From the NCBI GenBank assembly GCA_049840735.1, contig JASGJN010000012.1, positions 46,274 through 110,273 of the forward strand: DNA of 64,000 nucleotides, written 5' to 3'. This DNA comes from Anaeromyxobacter sp. (GTDB taxonomy: Bacteria; Myxococcota; Myxococcia; Myxococcales; Anaeromyxobacteraceae). The position numbers and the translations under genes were made by a program. Below, piece after piece: positions 2,975-11,450 of this stretch; the first letter of the stretch is position 1, and the number at the start of each line of letters is the position of its first letter. The notes under the pieces were generated by a model, which was not told where the DNA came from, did not search any database, and saw only the letters and a program-made list of their open reading frames with translations.

Positions 2975-5078
2975 GTGGGATCGATCACCTACTACGGGTT
3001 CCTGGCGCGGCACGTGCCCGCGCGGCGCATCCTGGCCACCGCCGCGCGGAAGGCGGTGCGCGGCGCCTGGAACCGGCTGGTGCCCCCGCTGGCGCCCGAC
3101 GCGGCGGGGCTGCTCGCCACGCTGGGCTGCGACGGCGCGGACGACCTCGCGGCCCTGCTGGCGCGGCCTCGGCCGGGCCGCCCGCCCTGGACGCCCTCCG
3201 CCCTGGCGCGAGCGCTGGACCGCCACCTCCCCGGCGAGCGGGAGCGGGCGCTGGGGCGGGCCCAGGCCGCGGCGGCGGGGCGGTTCCAGCTCTGCGGACG
3301 CTGGGTGGACGTGCGCCGGCCGGACGGCGGGCTCGACTGGCAGCGGGACGCCGTGAACGGCGGCCGCTTCGCCGGGCACGCCCCCTCGGCGAGCCTGCCG
3401 CCCGCCCCCGGGCTCGACCCCAAGATGGCCTGGGCGCTGGGGCGCGGGGAGCACTGGGTGGCGCTGGCCGCCGGCGCGGCGGCGGACCCGGGCGGCGGCG
3501 CTGCGCTCGCGGAGGCGCTCTCCGCCTCGGTGCGCGACTTCGTGGCGGTGAACCCGGTCGGCCAGGGGATCCACTGGACCTGCGCCATGGAGGCGGCGCT
3601 GCGCGCCTGGAACCTGGTCCAGGCGCTCTGGCTGCTGGCCATCCGCCGCCCTCCGGATGCGCCGCTGGCGATGGCCGCGGCGCGCCTGCTGGTGACCACC
3701 GGCCGGTTCGTGACCTCGCACCTGGAGGACGACACCGCCGTCCCCAACAACCACCTGACCACCGACTGGCTGGGGCTCCTGGCCTGCGCGGAGGGGCTGC
3801 CGGAGTGGCCGGAGGCGCCCCGCTGGCGCGCGCAGGCGCTCTCCGGGCTGCGGGCCGCGGCGGTGGCGCAGGTGCTGCCGGACGGGATGAGCTTCGAAGG
3901 CTCGGTCCCGTACCACCGCTTCTCGCTCGAGCTGTTCACCGCCGCGGCGCTGCTGGCGCACGCGGCGCGGCGCGGGCTGGGGCACGCCTACGCCCTGCGC
4001 CTGCACCGCATGTTCCGCGCCTCGCGGGCCCTCACCGCCGCCTCCGGGGACCTGCCGCAGCTGGGCGACAACGACGCCGGCCACGCGCTCACGGTGTGCG
4101 ATCGCGGCCCCACCGAGGCCGCCTACCTGCTGCCGCTGGGCGCCGCGCTCTTCCGGGACCCGGCGCTGCGGGTGGTGCGCGGCACGGCCGGGGCCGGCGA
4201 GGTGGCCTGGCTGCTGGGGCCGCGCGCCCTGGAGTGGCTGGCGCGCGCACCGGCCGGCCCCGCCCGGCGCAGCGCCGCGTTCCCGCACGGCGGTTATCAC
4301 GTGCTGCGCCGCGGCCCGCTGGAGGCCTTCGTCTCCTGCGGGCCGGCCGGCCAGGCCGGGCTGGGCGGCCACAACCACAACGACCGGCTGGCGCTGGAGC
4401 TGCGCGTGGGCGGGACGCTGGCGGTCTGCGATCCCGGCATGCCGGTGTACGGACGCGATCCCGATGCAGCGGAACCGGTTCCGCGCCACGGCGGCGCACG
4501 CCACCGTGCGGCTGGACGGGATGGAGCAGGTGCCCTTCCCTCCCGGCCGGCTCTTCGCCCTGCCCGACGGGGCGCACGCCCGCCTGCTCGCCTTCACCAC
4601 CGGGGCCGAGGCCGATCACCTGGCCGGCGAGCACCACGGCTACGGGGCGCGCGCCGGGGTCGTGCACCGCCGCGACCTGTGGGCCACCGCCTCGGGGCTG
4701 GTGGTCGTCGATCGCCTCCTCGGGTCGGGGACCCACCTCGTCGAGCTGCGCTGGCCGCTGGCCACCACGGCCGCCCAGCTGCGCCGGCTGGAGCCGGCGG
4801 AGCAGGCCGCCCTGGCGCGGCTGGCCGCGGCGGCGCGGCTCCGGCCGGCGCTGGACCGCGCGCGCGCGGTGGAGGTGCCGCTGGGCGGCCAGGGGCGGCT
4901 CCTGCTGGCCTTCGCCTGCCCGCCCGGCCTGGCGGCCACGGTGGCGCCGGTGCCGCGCTCGCCCGGCTACGGCCAGCTGGTGGAGGGCGCGGTGGTGGTC
5001 CTCTCCGGGCCGGTGCCCTGCCCGGCCACGCTGATCACGCTCTTGCTGCACCTGAACCGAGGGAGCCCGCCCGCATGA
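2975..5078 (+). CDS. Heparinase II/III family protein (frameshift near 4463)
   Basis: Motifs NNHL, FEGSVPYHRF, GDNDAG, GGHNHND, DPGMPVY; continues in ORF 4464..5078 (RNRFRATAAHATV). Confidence 0.85.
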
Positions 5079-6463: not shown

Positions 6464-6890
6464 GTGACCTCCCGGCTCGCCCTCTTCGCCCTCGCCCTCT
6501 GCGCGCTCCCTGCGCGCGCCGACGCGCCGGATGCGCGCGCCGCCACCCTGCAGGCCATGGAGGCCGAGCTGGGCCGCTCCATGGGCCGGCTCAGGCTGGA
6601 GGGGTACGACGCCCCCTACTTTGCCTCCTACCAGGTGGTGGAGACGACCCGGCACGAGCTGGGCGGCCGCTTCGGCGCGCTCTTCACGGACCGCACCCGG
6701 CGCAGCCGGACGCTCAGCGTGGACGTGCGGGTGGGGAGCTACGAGCTCGACTCCTCCGGTCCGGAGGAGAACGCCATCCTCCTGGGCGCCGACGGCCCGA
6801 GCTGGTCGGCGCCGCGCGAGGCCCCGCTGGACGGGGACGTGGCCGCGCTCCGCAACGCGCTCTGGCTGGTGACCGACGAGCAGTACAAGC
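6464..6890 (+). CDS. TldD/PmbA family metalloprotease with signal peptide, N-terminal part (interrupted by CRISPR/IS block)
   Basis: Signal peptide, then AMEAELGRSMGRLRL..PYFASY, DVRVGSYELD, ALRNALWLVTDEQYK; protein-like sequence stops at first degenerate repeat. Confidence 0.75.
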
Positions 6891-7532
6891 TTCAGGGGCC
6901 GCTCCCGAGACAAGCCCCCAGACCGGCCCACCCAGGGGGCCCTCGTAGGAGCAGAGCCGCGCACAGGCTTCAACGGGGCCGCTCCTCGTGAGGAGCGGAG
7001 AGTCCCACCGACGACCCCGTCCCGGGCTCGTTCGCTTCAACGGGGCCGCTCCTCGTGAGGAGCGGAGAGCCCCACGGCCGCGACCATGCCTTCGCCTCCG
7101 TGCGGCTTCAACGGGGCCGCTCCTCGTGAGGAGCGGAGAGGCCGACGCCAACACAAGACCGCTGAACGTCTCTTCAACGGGGCCGCTCCTCGTGAGGAGC
7201 GGAGAGGTCGAGGCCCGCCGCTCCCGTCGGGCTTCAACGGGGCCGCTCCTCGTGAGGAGCGGAGAGGCTGCAGCCAGATCCAGATGCGGCCGTCACAAGC
7301 TTCAACGGGGCCGCTCCTCGTGAGAACAGGGGCCGCCCTCGTGAGGAGCGGAGAGCCGGGGATGAGGCCCACAACGAACGCGGCGCTTCACGGGGCCGCT
7401 CCTCGTGAGGAGCGGAGAGGGCGCTGAGAACACCGAGTCGCGAGGCGCAGCTTCAACGGGGCCGCTCCTCGTGAGGAGCGGAGAGCCTCCTGCGCGCGCC
7501 CGGCGACGTCTTGCTTCAACGGGGCCGCTCCT
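6889..7532 (-). CRISPR. CRISPR array part 1; 36-bp repeat CTCTCCGCTCCTCACGAGGAGCGGCCCCGTTGAAGC (type I-G/I-U-like)
   Basis: Plus-strand copies of GCTTCAACGGGGCCGCTCCTCGTGAGGAGCGGAGAG at 6967, 7034, 7105, 7171, 7231, 7385, 7450; partial or degenerate copies at 6889, 6933, 7299, 7325, 7513; unique spacers ~24-35 bp; internal hairpin CCGCTCCTC/GAGGAGCGG; orientation inferred from the TTGAAGC 3' end. Confidence 0.92.
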
Positions 7533-7751
7533 GTGATCGGCCACACCGATCCGTGTGAAGTGCGGCCAGGAGATCGAGCGCCGGAAACTTCGTGAGCCTG
7601 CGGCGGGCAGGTACGACGGAGAGGTCACGCGTCGAAAGGACGAAGGCCGGGAGCGGCAACTCCCAGCCTTCCGTGTCGAGCGAGGGCGCGTCGACGTACG
7701 CAGCCTCGCCCGAGACGAGCGCCATGGCAAGAAGTCGGCGCGGGCAAGGGC

Positions 7752-8125
7752 GTGCCCGATCACCGGCTGGCTACATGCGCGCGCTGTCGCGCGTCGTTCT
7801 CGCTCTGTCGCGCGTGTGACCGAGGCCAGGTCTTCTGCGGGCCGGCGTGTCGGGCAGCGGCGCGCTCGAGGTGATCCGCGCGGCGCGGAGGCGTCATCGT
7901 CAGAGCGACGAGGGCAGGCTCGACCACCGGGATCGGGAGCGTGCGCGGCGCGCTCGGCGGTCAGCCCGCGTGGGGATCTGGGTTCCGAGAAGTTGCCGTC
8001 GTCGCCGATGGTCCGCGCGGACGCTGGCGCGTGCGACTCCACGGTGGAGCCGGGCGTCGCCGCGCCCGAGGTTCATCATGAGCGAAACGATCACGGTCAC
8101 CATCGCCCCCAGCCGGACCGCGTGA
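7752..8125 (+). CDS. Cys-rich (putative Zn-binding), Arg-rich accessory ORF upstream of istA (frameshifted)
   Basis: From GTG 7752: PDHRLATCARCRASFSLCRACDRGQVFCGPACRAAAR, then after a shift EVIRAARRRHRQSDEGRLDHRDRERARR; 3' end approximate. Confidence 0.6.
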
Positions 8126-8448
8126 TCCTGGCCACGACGGCGACGCACGACGTTCTCAAGGCTGTCCTCGGACCGTCGCGCCGGTCTCATCCGAGAGCGG
8201 CGGCGACGTTGCTCGAGGGGCTCGCCCTCTGGCATCAGCAGCCCCTCTCCGTTGTGCTGTCTGCGGACGCCTCGGACGATGGTACCGCGCTGGGCCTCTG
8301 CGACGCGCTCGGGTTTGGACGCTCGCTCCACTACGAGGTCGCCCTCGCGTACGCGGATCGCTGGCACGGGCGCCGACGACGTGATCGTCGAGGGCTCGGT
8401 GACTTCCGCGACCTGCGCCAGCTCTCGTTCTGGGAGGCGTCGCGATGA
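8078..8448 (+). CDS. Hypothetical accessory ORF coupled to istA (frameshift near 8108)
   Basis: MSETITVTIAP-QPDRVILATTATHDVLKAVLGP..HPRAAATLLEGLALW..GLGDFRDLRQL; its TGA overlaps the istA ATG (ATGA). Confidence 0.6.
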
Positions 8449-8800
8449 CGGTGAGCATCGCGACCGCCGCGAGATCCGGCGGCTCTACTTCGCCGAGCAT
8501 TGGAAGCGCGGGACGATTGCCGCCCAGCTCGGGGTCCACTTCGACACCGTGGCGCGCGTGCTCGGCAGCTTCGGCCCCAAAGCCGGGACGCCAAGGCCCG
8601 AGGCTCGCGTTCTCGAGCCGTACGTCGCGTTCGTCGATGAGACGCTCGCGCGTCACCCGCGTCTCGTATCCACCCGCATCCACGACATGCTCGTCGAGCG
8701 CGGCTACAGCGGCAGCCTCCGCACGCTCCGTCGTACGTTCGCGCCAGTCGGCCAGCGCCGCGCAACGAGGTCTACGTGCGCGTCGAGTCCCTCAGCAGGC
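8445..8800 (+). pseudogene. istA: IS21-family transposase IstA, N-terminal fragment
   Basis: EIRRLYFAEHWKRGTIAAQLGVHFDTVARVL (HTH), LEPYVAFVDETLARHPRL, HDMLVERGYSGSLRTLRR, EVYVRVE; frameshifted and decays before the DDE core. Confidence 0.8.
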
Positions 8801-9063
8801 GGTGGCTCACGTGAGCTTGTTGCGCGATGTGGGCCGAGCTCGTGGTCAAGAGTAGCAGCGCACGAGAAAGGCAAGGTCAGCGCATCCGCATAGCCTCGGC
8901 CTCGCTCTCCATAGCTGGGCCACGTCGTCACACGTCGTCCCACAATTCGTGCGTCCCAGCCTCAGCGTGGCTCACGCACGTCGCGAGGCGAAGGCGTCCC
9001 CGCCAGACATCGAGCAGCTCTCACATAAATATCAAAAGAGTAATAGGGGCAGAGAGAAAAAAA

Positions 9064-9277
9064 CTTCGGGCGCTCCTCGTAGGAGCGGAGACTTGTCGTT
9101 GACTTGCTCCGCTCGCAAGCTTCAACGGGGCCGCTCCTCGTGAGGAGCGGAGAGGACGACGGCGGCATGACGAGGCGCTGCTGCTTCAACGGGGCCGCTC
9201 CTCGTGAGGAGCGGAGAGGCCGCGCTCCCCACCGCGAAGCGAAGAAGCGATGCTTCAACGGGCCGCTCCGTAGGAGA
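9064..9277 (-). CRISPR. CRISPR array part 2, same repeat
   Basis: Perfect repeats at 9119-9154 and 9183-9218; degenerate at 9064-9091 and 9252-9277; spacers 27-33 bp. Confidence 0.9.
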
Positions 9278-10571
9278 AGGCGCTCAAAAAGTCCGACTAC
9301 TTCAAGAAGAAGTCGAAGGGGGTCTACCGGCCCGACGCGGCCGACCGCGCCCCGTCCTTCTCCCGCGAGCCGGCCTCGCGCCACGTGGACGCGCCGCTCC
9401 CGTTCACCTTCGACGCCGAGGCCTGGCGCGGGCGGATCCGCGAGGCCACCGCCCGCTTCCGCGATCACCCGGAGATCTTCGACGCCGAGGTGGAGCTGAC
9501 GGCGGAGCGGCAGGTGCGCTGGTTCACCTCCAGCGAGGGCTCGGCCCTGATCACCGAGCAGGCCGTCTACAACATCCACCTCACCGCCGTGACCCGCGCC
9601 CCCGACGGCCAGCTGCTGGAGGACGGACGCGACTGGTACGCGCCCACCGAGGCCGGCCTGCCCGCGCCGGCGCAGCTGGGCGCGGCGGTGGATCAGGTCA
9701 TCCAGGAGCTGGTGGCGCTGCGCCAGGCCCCGGCCATCGACCCGTACACCGGGCCGGCCATCCTCGAGTCCGAGGCCGCCGGCGTCCTCTTCCACGAGGC
9801 GCTCGGCCACCGGCTGGAGGGGGAGCGGATCGACGACGACCAGGACGGGCAGACCTTCCGGGGCCAGGTGGGCCAGCGGATCCTGCCGCCCTTCCTGACG
9901 CTGGTGGACGATCCCACCCTGGCCACCCTCGGCGGCCAGCCGCTGAACGGCTTCTACCGCTTCGACGACCAGGGCGTGCCGGGGCAGCGCACCGTGCTGG
10001 TCCGCGACGGGAAGCTCGAGGCCTACCTGCTCTCGCGCAAGCCGGTGGCGCCGTTCACCCGCTCCAACGGCCACGGCCGCGCGCAGGGCATCCGCCGCCC
10101 GGTGTCGCGCATGTCCAACCTGATCCTCACCTCCACGCGGCAGGTGCCCGCCGCCAGGCTCAAGCAGCAGCTGATGGAGGAGGCGCGCCGGCAGGGCAAG
10201 CCCTTCGGGCTCATCATCCGGGACATCACCGGCGGTGACACCAACACCGCCTCCTACGGCTACCAGGCCTTCAAGGGGACGCCGCGGCTGGTCTACCGCG
10301 TCGACGCGAAGACCGGCGCCGAGCAGCTGGTGCGCGGCGTGGAGCTGGTCGGGACGCCCCTCTCCAGCGTCAACCGGGTGCTGGCCACCAGCGACCGGGC
10401 CCAGGTGTTCAACGGCTACTGCGGCGCGGAGAGCGGCTACGTGCCGGTCTCGACCGCGGCGCCCGCCGTGCTGGTGCAGGAGCTCGAGCTGCAGCGGGTG
10501 GCCCGCGCCAGCGACCGCAGCCCCATCCTCCCCGCCCCGTGGACCGACCAGGGCGGCGGGTCACGATCTGA
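9278..10571 (+). CDS. TldD/PmbA family metalloprotease, C-terminal part
   Basis: SDYFKKKSKGVYR..PSFSRE, YTGPAIL, HEALGHRLEG (HExxGH), VDDPT, SNGHGR, LVRGVELVGTP, FNGYCGAESG; stop inferred at TGA 10569-10571 (ORF track reads to 10749). Confidence 0.85.
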
Positions 10572-10727
10572 ACGGGGGCTGCGCCCCCGCCCCGCCAGCA
10601 GAGCTGTCGGGGCCCCACCCCTGCTGCGGCGGAGCCGAGCGCGCCGCGGCCTGTCGGCCTTGCGCGCCATCCGCCGCCGAGGGGCTGCCGCCCCTCCCCT
10701 GGCTTTCGCCGGGGCCCCCACCCCGTT
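10571..10727. repeat. ~157-bp structured REP/MITE-like element
   Basis: AACGGGG...CCCCGTT ends; several hairpins; closely similar to 41515-41671. Confidence 0.75.
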
Positions 10728-10780
10728 TCGGACCAGCGAGCGACCGTAGCCCGCGTCCGCCCCTTCCGCCAGGTGACCCC

Positions 10781-11257
10781 GTGAGCACGCCCGTCCCCGT
10801 CCCGCCCCTCGACGCCCTGCTCGGCCAGCCGCGCCGGGCCGCCCTCGACGCCTTCGCGCGCGCCGGCTGGCGGCCCTGGGCCACGCCCATCTCGCTCGAC
10901 GCCGGGCTGCGGCGGCGGCTCAACATCGATCTCTCCGAGCCCGAGGTGGCGCTGCTGCGCGACGAGGCGCTGGCGGCGGTGGCGCACCTCGAGACCGATC
11001 GCGAGGGGCTGGTGACGCACGTCGAGGTGGTGGGGGCCGACCCGGCCGACCCCGTGGCCATCGCGCTGGCGCTGCTGGGCGAGATCGGCCCGCCCCGCAC
11101 CGGCGGCAACGCCCAGGCGCGCGAGTGGGTCTGGGGCCCGGAGTCGGGGGCCGAGGCGCAGGTGGCCGGCGAGCCGGTGCGACTCTGGATCTGCGCCGAG
11201 CGGGCCTACGGCGACCGGCTCTGGCTCATCGCCAGCCTGGTGCGGCGGGCATCGTAA
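10781..11257 (+). CDS. Hypothetical protein
   Basis: 3' part of ORF 10235..11257 from GTG 10781; protein-like composition and GC3-biased codons. Confidence 0.65.
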   Translation: MSTPVPVPPLDALLGQPRRAALDAFARAGWRPWATPISLDAGLRRRLNIDLSEPEVALLRDEALAAVAHLETDREGLVTHVEVVGADPADPVAIALALLGEIGPPRTGGNAQAREWVWGPESGAEAQVAGEPVRLWICAERAYGDRLWLIASLVRRAS

Positions 11258-11450
11258 CGGGGACTGCGTCCCCGCCCCAGGAGCAAAGCTCCTGGGGCCC
11301 CACCCCTGCTGCGCTGGGTCCCGCCGCGCTGCGGCCCCAGAATCATCAAGCCAGGGGAAGGGGGCCTTGCGCGGCACCCAGCGAGGAGGGGCGCTGCCCC
11401 TCCCCCGCGCTGCGCGCGGGGCCCCAACCCCCTCAACCCGCCCCCGCAAC
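11256..11450. repeat. Divergent copy of the structured REP-like element
   Basis: AACGGGGACTGCGTCCCCGCCCC-hairpin-GGGGCCCCACCCCTGCT shared with 10571 and 41515; 3' end approximate. Confidence 0.6.

Follow-up and report, generated by a model that had tools for sequence, protein, structure and literature searches.

A type I-G CRISPR array fragment carrying an IS21-family element inside a tldD-like gene of Anaeromyxobacter sp., most likely an assembly or polishing chimera

CRISPR arrays away from cas genes were reportedly treated by Shmakov et al. in 2020, and Nivala et al. are said to have described in 2018 neo-CRISPR arrays, formed by off-target Cas1-Cas2 integration, in which a host site, once duplicated, serves as the repeat. 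The window analysed here (64,000 nt of an Anaeromyxobacter sp. contig) likewise holds repeat-spacer DNA at an ectopic site, but the neo-CRISPR repeat is derived from the host whereas the repeat of the window comes from elsewhere and has no particular likeness to the host site. In 10 relatives the repeat-likeness of the target site fell between the 24th and 97th percentile of 5000 random 40-mers; a neo-CRISPR origin was therefore rejected, and since the site is not unusually repeat-like, homology does not explain a misjoin either.

The array shares a 36-nt repeat with identical start and hairpin with type I-G arrays (csb1/cas7g, csb2, cas3g, cas4g/cas1g; locus L027). However, spacers in those arrays are 35-38 nt long and those of the window 0-35 nt, and the window array lies inside a gene without cas genes or leader. 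As in orphan arrays, the cognate cas genes are missing from the assembly (PMC13142298); that source proposes three origins, namely mobile-element transfer, cas loss and off-target acquisition, and the orphan arrays it describes in the part available retain a leader, whereas the window array is leaderless and intragenic. For two further arrays, L020 and L024, the DNA examined gave no I-G cas match; they have a leader-like flank in common, which the window array lacks. The insertion sequence within the array resembles the IS21 elements L070 and L071 in its TG start, its two small upstream ORFs and its IstA N-terminus (57-59% identical), but those elements carry istA/istB, while the window copy is frameshifted, with ~120 of ~510 IstA codons readable and istB and the right end unrecognised.

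Trigodet et al. (10.1101/2025.04.22.649783) describe chimeras, minor-allele contigs and sequence that no read contains in long-read metagenome assemblies. The errors reported there are like the present locus in placing foreign or minority sequence in a conserved locus, with indels and stretches unsupported by reads. They differ in that mapped PacBio HiFi reads proved them, whereas our case was judged from the assembly alone, and no CRISPR array within a gene figures in the available part of that paper.

An insert of 2.39 kb (6890 to ~9276) splits a TldD-like protease gene in the window (Table 1), an anatomy present as assembled and taken from the sequence and its ORFs. Relative to the remaining assembly the insert is foreign, and it is eroded by base loss amid clean surroundings. 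Most likely it is a chimera of long-read assembly or polishing, and in the organism itself the tldD-like gene is most likely unbroken.

Table 1. Features of the split gene and its insert (window coordinates).
Feature	Position	Strand	Description
TldD/PmbA-like zinc metalloprotease gene, 5' half	6464..6889	+	GTG-start open frame, 142 codons, ends ...WLVTDEQYK
Left array block	6889..7532	-	12 repeat pieces; last one cut by the IS
IS21-family element, 5' 1.27 kb of ~3.2 kb	7532..8793	+	begins TG inside a repeat; frameshifted
Garbled remnant of the remaining IS	8794..9062	+	~270 nt in place of ~1.9 kb; ends in AT-rich scrap
Right array block	9063..9278	-	4 repeat pieces, two perfect; leader absent beyond
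Right junction zone	9274..9291	+	host codons mixed with 6-9 nt belonging to neither repeat nor gene
TldD-like gene, 3' half	9277..10566	+	starts KALKKSDYFKKKSKGVYR; 430 codons; frame continues to 10749

The 5' half showed 55-71% identity to the N-terminal part of intact relatives, stopping at a conserved YK. Judged by eye, its N-terminus resembles a signal peptide. Of eight relatives tested, seven were 69-72% identical to the 3' half without a gap across ~420 aa (the eighth aligned over 69 aa only), and its best 120 homologues, at 68-74% identity, contained PF19289 in all cases (120/120). The NCBIfam TldD models NF040952 (E 3.7e-22) and NF008006 (E 4.7e-17) matched it below their equivalog cut-offs, indicating a TldD-like protein and not an E. 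coli-type TldD. Stop codons are absent from both halves, which give 142 + 430 = 572 open codons without decay. The first-pass annotation had held that the protease halves flank the insert and rejoin; the open frames and the gap-free 3' half agree with this, and in genome G006 the DNA matches to the two halves are separated by 14 nt. Chained tblastn across the split gene gave an offset of 2391 nt. The HExxGH motif announced for the 3' half was located as HEALGH at 9793-9810, but the gene end placed at the TGA of 10569-10571 was abandoned, because this TGA is out of frame and the frame stays open to 10749. The alignment of the joined protein to homologues, which had been suggested as a check, revealed no host residue lost and 6-9 nt extra at the right junction. 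As no close host relative was found (best protein 74%, best DNA ~80-82%), the native junction was deduced from these homologues.

Sixteen pieces of the 36-nt repeat were aligned in the insert, of which seven were perfect 36-mers. The array strand was assigned from the leader side of related arrays. The two outermost pieces of the left block are each 12 nt short, a spacer is absent at 7324/7325, and the first piece of the right block may represent the remainder of the repeat split by the IS. Over 15 copies, the repeat damage amounted to 56 deleted bases, one inserted and three substituted. All 14 spacers are at most 35 nt long (mean 25; 30 for the seven core spacers), and related arrays have spacers of mostly 34-41 nt with averages of 36-37.5. 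In the L024 array, which is from another MAG, 5 of 52 spacers are likewise 32 nt or shorter, which counts against the chimera explanation. No leader was found beside the array: related arrays have non-coding DNA at this place and the window has tldD codons (GC 0.70). The spacers, which may be blends, matched no phage, matched plasmids in istA only, and 12 of them gave only short chance-level matches against the genome and the loci.

On the minus strand the repeat has TTGAAGC as its end, the ending given in the first-pass annotation, and it forms an 8-bp stem, but the folding is unexceptional (z -1.8). A degenerate repeat pattern detected arrays at nine loci in six genomes. At L027 the related repeat adjoins a full I-G operon (TIGR02570, TIGR02165, TIGR02621, NF049934 and NF049935 over cut-off), and the repeat thus belongs to a family found beside I-G cas operons, in accordance with its earlier assignment. 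The exact 36-nt repeat had no match in the genome and metagenome contig records searched, and within the 6.67-Mb genome (long-read, 94% complete, 1.6% contaminated) it occurs only at this site; a second copy beside cas3/csb1/csb2/cas8g, which the annotation had proposed to look for, was not found in the assembly. The window was stated to lack cas genes; we found none there, and tblastn with five L027 proteins (csb1, csb2, cas3g, cas8g-like, cas4/1) revealed no I-G cas gene in the whole genome, with positive controls at L023, L025 and L026. The sole match to these proteins was a weak cas3 at a type I-E locus on contig C13, and the only cas1 match in the genome is on the same contig. HMM searches for I-G cas genes (including PF09617 and TIGR02165), run without a positive control, were empty, and a PF09827 search gave no cas2 match although an I-E cas2-sized ORF is present in L001.

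The IS contains a Cys-rich ORF, a second small ORF and the start of istA. It corresponds to 1270 nt of contigs of 3202 and 3232 nt (runs X1 and X2), with 33 substitutions and 8 gap letters. Compared with the sludge copies, all seven indels are losses in the window, six of them single letters within same-letter runs, and the 12 substitutions tested, which lie in two ORFs, all fall at third positions and are silent, indicating that the element was not decaying. The transposase fragment matched NF033546 (E 2.9e-12; 46.7 bits against a cut-off of 160) over the N-terminal 104 of 294 model positions. Other homologues showed 66-68% identity and the nearest relative within the host genome 68%; no second or intact copy exists in the host genome, and a 30-nt IS probe had no match in metagenome contigs. 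Only the left TG end was recognised, with no second terminal inverted repeat or target duplication. In the remnant, a 37-nt match in the sludge runs covers 8965-9001, and scraps of IstA are collinear at marginal strength (4/300 and 6/300 shuffles scored equally well). The DNA of 8794-9001 did not align significantly to two distant istA genes (38/200 and 76/200 shuffles as good), and GC falls to 0.38 at 9005-9062. The istA, called garbled in the first-pass annotation, is frameshifted, with only scraps for the remainder.

At the left, the junction coincides exactly with a repeat's first base; at the right, it lies at or near a repeat end. Degenerate repeats had been described at both junctions, which holds for the left, but the right is not cleanly repeat-bounded, its extra nucleotides standing among host codons past the last repeat. 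The spacing from YK to the next aromatic residue is five residues in 110 of 110 parsed homologues (of 120) and 7-8 in the window. Since both outer junctions are repeat remnants, with no IS end or target duplication, an IS-borne composite element was rejected.

The base-loss damage is confined to the insert. The tldD flanks are clean, and so is the I-E array of the same genome, with no indel in 41 repeats and 32-nt spacers in 37 of 40. A chimeric or badly polished assembly, which the first-pass annotation had offered as the alternative, fits these clean surroundings, the silent IS substitutions and the loss-only indels better than its first inference of an array segment moving as a repeat-bounded unit, which is not supported. 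Elsewhere the assembly is indel-prone (146 frame breaks in 744 kb, affecting 122 of 657 genes). Six large offsets were met among the 657 genes surveyed, and this insert is the only real large one within a gene, which argues against a systematic assembly fault. Four of the other five were judged on inspection to be over-long ORF starts or a low-complexity linker; in the fifth (on C7) two HSPs overlap where the frame breaks. Fourteen sequencing runs shared only 0.05-0.09 of the window's words; in the four runs compared in detail long matches lay over the IS only and no junction was bridged, and their failure to cover the flanks says nothing either way, nor do these runs point to a habitat for the genome. 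Against the artefact stand the ends at or near repeat boundaries, which a random chimera seldom gives. Ordinary read chimeras do not take the form gene-insert-gene with the gene exactly rejoined, which also counts against it.

Under the chimera explanation, a real I-G array piece with an IS21 element in one repeat, originally ~4.3 kb, would have come from another organism or an unassembled replicon and been drawn into the draft contig by a stray read or a path in the assembly graph. Polishing would then have averaged insert-free host reads, reads with shared repeats and unlike spacers, and IS reads. Such averaging would keep the central repeats and the 5' part of the IS, shorten and blend the spacers, collapse the IS 3' part, fray both ends and leave scraps among host codons; the printed spacers are probably not true spacers. 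Our literature search found no study of mixed insertions being eroded by a polisher. We built a toy model (a majority vote after MAFFT alignment in place of a real polisher, with hand-tuned read numbers). Six reads with unlike spacers and two insert-free reads gave 64/72 perfect repeats and spacers of 32.5 +/- 2.2 nt, and a fixed insertion gave 72/72 and 37.0 +/- 0.7 nt. In this model, then, shared-repeat reads of unlike spacers mixed with insert-free reads reproduce the window pattern, whereas a fixed insertion does not.

A real and recent insertion in part of the population is unlikely, though it is the best of the remaining explanations. A leaderless foreign I-G array piece with an IS21 passenger would have entered tldD, perhaps through illegitimate recombination or because the ends of a broken chromosome were joined to a repeat; the assembler would have picked the insert allele, and insert-free reads would have eroded it. 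This supplies the first step that the artefact reading lacks, and it suits the undecayed tldD halves, the ends at or near repeat boundaries and the absence of host residue loss; the output of assemblers has been reported to include minor alleles carried by few reads or even one (10.1101/2025.04.22.649783). However, the donor, I-G Cas4/1-Cas2 and a second IS copy are all missing from the genome, non-host scraps lie beyond the last repeat, and the insert was seen in no other genome (no long match above 69% among 36 of the genus and 400 of the phylum). In the toy model, identical insert-bearing reads left only 31/72 and 12/72 perfect repeats, with spacers of 34-36.5 nt (few scored, 11 and 2) against the window's 30 nt between intact repeats.

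Still more doubtful is the independent movement of an array as a unit bounded by repeats. Here a circle, IS21 included, would be cut out between two repeats and would open at one repeat, and both ends of a chromosome break would be joined to this repeat by a Cas1-Cas2-type reaction, as if these two ends formed one giant spacer. The product would be repeat-(spacer-repeat)n in the gene without target duplication, leader or host base loss, in a sub-population of a host without cognate cas genes. Our literature search, in the sources as far as available, found no description of such circle-joining into a chromosome break.

The two weakest explanations are very improbable. An old insertion, real and fixed, would have decayed by natural deletion and left the array orphaned and tldD as a pseudogene. 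This could appeal to the general tendency of bacterial pseudogenes to lose DNA by deletion, but is already largely refuted: a dead gene should decay along with its insert, yet its 572 codons remain open without a gap in the 3' half, the 12 IS substitutions are all silent, and a fixed insertion came out of the simulated polishing clean. In its favour, orphan arrays are common (PMC13142298), and the same source names mobile-element transfer among their origins, which with the IS21-family element present would favour carriage of the flanking array by the IS as cargo or via a cointegrate. The first-pass annotation had considered such IS-assisted carriage; it is unlikely, because the IS sits mid-insert within a repeat at 7532 and not at the array ends, the junctions have no IS end or target duplication, and no intact genomic copy could act in trans.

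Were the insert real, it would represent a new route for CRISPR memory to move with neither cas genes nor a mobile element at its flanks. An artefact, which we consider most likely, would serve as a warning that a long-read genome of 94% completeness and 1.6% contamination can hold array DNA of foreign origin whose spacers never existed. Counts of orphan arrays and virus-host links drawn from spacers would be led astray by it, and a conserved gene is wrongly shown as broken.

The TldD-like protease gene was split by CRISPR repeats, spacers and an IS21-family fragment and then resumed, as the first-pass annotation had described, and we consider this insert most likely an assembly artefact, on evidence of damaged outermost repeats, irregular spacers, IS bases lost by indels and clean tldD halves. 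The site was uninterrupted in the loci of eleven relatives compared, and the best named homologues were Anaeromyxobacter TldD/PmbA proteins (about 72%). The two halves are undamaged, with 572 codons stop-free and the 3' half gap-free over ~420 residues; their identities to the complete relative genome G006 (66% and 72%) are low to middling by genome-wide standards (median 75.5%, quartiles 67–82.5).

Alignment of the joined protein to homologues bore out that little coding sequence was lost: no residue is missing, and 2–3 are extra, the distance from the conserved YK to the next aromatic residue being five residues in all 110 homologues parsed (of 120) and seven or eight in the window. Therefore, immediately beyond the final repeat, 6–9 nt belonging neither to gene nor to repeat are interspersed with host codons. 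Degenerate repeats had been claimed at both junctions; the left one held, with the last host codon directly abutting the first base of the repeat, but the right end, with its stray bases, does not stop cleanly at a repeat. The tldD-like frame overran the end of its homologues into a ~130-nt REP-like element, which has dozens of copies (71–95%) on many contigs of the genome (G000), and an out-of-frame TGA near the gene end probably reflects a residual indel.

Locations of the features discussed (window positions unless a contig or locus is named)
Feature	Location	Remark
tldD-like gene, 5' frame	6464–6889	stops at YK
Insert	6890–~9276	2.39 kb remaining
IS start	7532	TG, within a repeat
IS21 subgroup segment	7532–8450	subgroup also at L019, L031, L070, L071
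Replaced IS part	8794–9062	in place of about 1.9 kb of IS
Segment compared with run X5	9119–9163	
tldD-like gene, reading resumes	9277	
HEALGH motif	9793–9810	
Frame overrun	10540–10749	
TGA	10569–10571	out of frame
REP-like element	10566–10699, 11251–11336	
Other frame breaks	~290, ~4440–4690, ~14340, ~14900	compared with G006
Type I-E locus of G000	C13:~465000–474340	L001, L018
Distant own IS copy	C14:~68100–70100	same IS21 subgroup
Related array, 56 repeats	L020:6680–10831	
Related array, 53 repeats	L024:10001–13805	

The insert contained a single 36-nt repeat in 16 pieces, of which 12 lay to the left and four to the right of the IS and seven were perfect. A degenerate pattern search revealed arrays with a related repeat in six genomes, and one of these (L027) adjoins csb1, csb2, cas3g, a cas8g-like gene and cas4g/cas1g; thus the family belongs to type I-G, in agreement with the first-pass assignment. 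We found no other copy of the repeat anywhere in G000 and no I-G cas genes by tblastn with controls. In related arrays the leader-like non-coding flank occupies the place taken in the window by tldD codons, so the array here is leaderless. With boundaries set by hand and gaps cheap, 56 bases were deleted, one inserted and three substituted in 15 copies (the IS-cut piece excluded, though six of the deleted bases may belong to the IS-split repeat), and the outermost copies were worst. Spacers were 0–35 nt (mean 25; mean 30 for the seven flanked by near-intact repeats), compared with means of 36–37.5 nt and SD of 1.0–1.3 in related arrays, the exception being L024 (SD 2.8), in which five of 52 spacers were no longer than 32 nt. 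An original length near 4.3 kb is estimated for the insert, assuming 15 repeats, 14 spacers of 37 nt each and an element of 3.2 kb.

Leader-like flanks of the L020 and L024 arrays were closely similar; the two loci are filed under different phyla, and no I-G cas match was revealed in the DNA examined around either. In L023, an array of 140 repeats, two neighbouring repeats stand 730 nt apart at one point, which may reflect an inserted element. Record 31 of run X5, a long contig (30,303 nt), carries a related repeat near its end, with five differences in 45 nt.

The first 1270 nt of the IS matched 3202- and 3232-nt contigs of sludge runs X1 and X2, with shorter pieces in X3 and X5; the closest relative within G000 showed 68%. 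Compared with the sludge element, all seven indels were losses in the window, at positions coinciding with frame switches against homologues. The 12 substitutions tested (second ORF and istA; 33 in total) were all at silent third positions, which indicates that the IS was under selection and not rotting. The segment replacing the missing IS part includes a 37-nt piece also present in the sludge runs and collinear scraps of IstA residues ~158–486 (shuffles scored as well in 4/300 and 6/300 cases); DNA-level alignment of this region to istA was not significant. Two small ORFs, one with paired CxxC motifs, precede istA in this IS21 subgroup.

Genome G000 (6.67 Mb, 26 contigs, completeness 94.35%, contamination 1.57%), in which the window occupies C12:46274–110273, is indel-prone and was, we infer, assembled from long metagenomic reads at modest depth. 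Among 1032 ORFs from 2.0 Mb of G006, 657 passed identity and coverage filters, and 146 frame breaks were counted in 744 kb, spread over 122 genes; this count is rough, missing compensated shifts and including some false calls. The breaks at four places in other window genes are consistent with this genome-wide rate, which is about 0.2 per kb. G000 itself carries a type I-E array with a different 29-nt repeat; none of its 41 repeats has an indel, and 37 of its 40 spacers measure 32 nt.

A consensus over insert-bearing and insert-skipping reads would produce loss-only damage confined to the insert. In a toy test (random sequence, MAFFT alignment, majority vote), a fixed insertion came out clean, with 72/72 repeats intact and spacers of 37.0 nt. 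When the insert reads were identical and insert-free reads were added, the repeats suffered most (31/72 and 12/72 intact), the few scorable spacers being 34–36.5 nt. Six reads with a common repeat and unlike spacers gave 36.1 nt alone; adding one, two or three reads without the insert gave 35.5, 32.5 and 19.6 nt, respectively, and 64–67 of 72 repeats stayed intact. The window's spacers (30 nt between intact repeats) fit this last series, although the model is crude and yielded a higher proportion of perfect repeats than the window shows. The fit suggests the existence of host reads lacking the insert and a pile-up of foreign repeat-sharing reads at the site, so that the printed spacers are probably blends. 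Trigodet et al. (10.1101/2025.04.22.649783) document that long-read assemblers can produce chimeras, sequence without read support, and contigs representing an allele that a single read carries.

Against an artefact, the insert ends lie at or near repeat boundaries, the first misjoin has no explanatory homology, and the survey of 657 genes turned up no other insert of this kind. The boundary look could nevertheless arise if spacer ends without support were eroded, as the right-end scraps hint. A real insertion in a sub-population, eroded afterwards by polishing, therefore keeps some weight, though we consider it unlikely. In its most daring version, a circle excised from an array is joined at one repeat to the ends of the chromosome; this would predict exactly the arrangement seen, but it calls for an I-G integrase, which is absent from the assembly, and is very improbable. 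The earlier proposal that the array moved as a repeat-bounded mobile unit is not supported, the damage being loss-only and confined to the insert; IS-driven carriage, like a fixed old insertion, is scarcely credible.

A neo-CRISPR array, a concept reportedly due to Nivala and colleagues in 2018, was rejected because the insert's repeat is not host-derived. Orphan arrays have been proposed to originate by mobile-element transfer, by cas loss or by off-target acquisition (PMC13142298). Among the titles listed by our literature search, none reported a whole array inserted into a gene; transposons inserting into repeats, the reverse case, are the subject of PMC11837452. Although a type I-G array was its source, the insert is not a member of a working I-G system, having no cas genes, no leader and abnormal spacers, and it counts as an orphan array on paper only.
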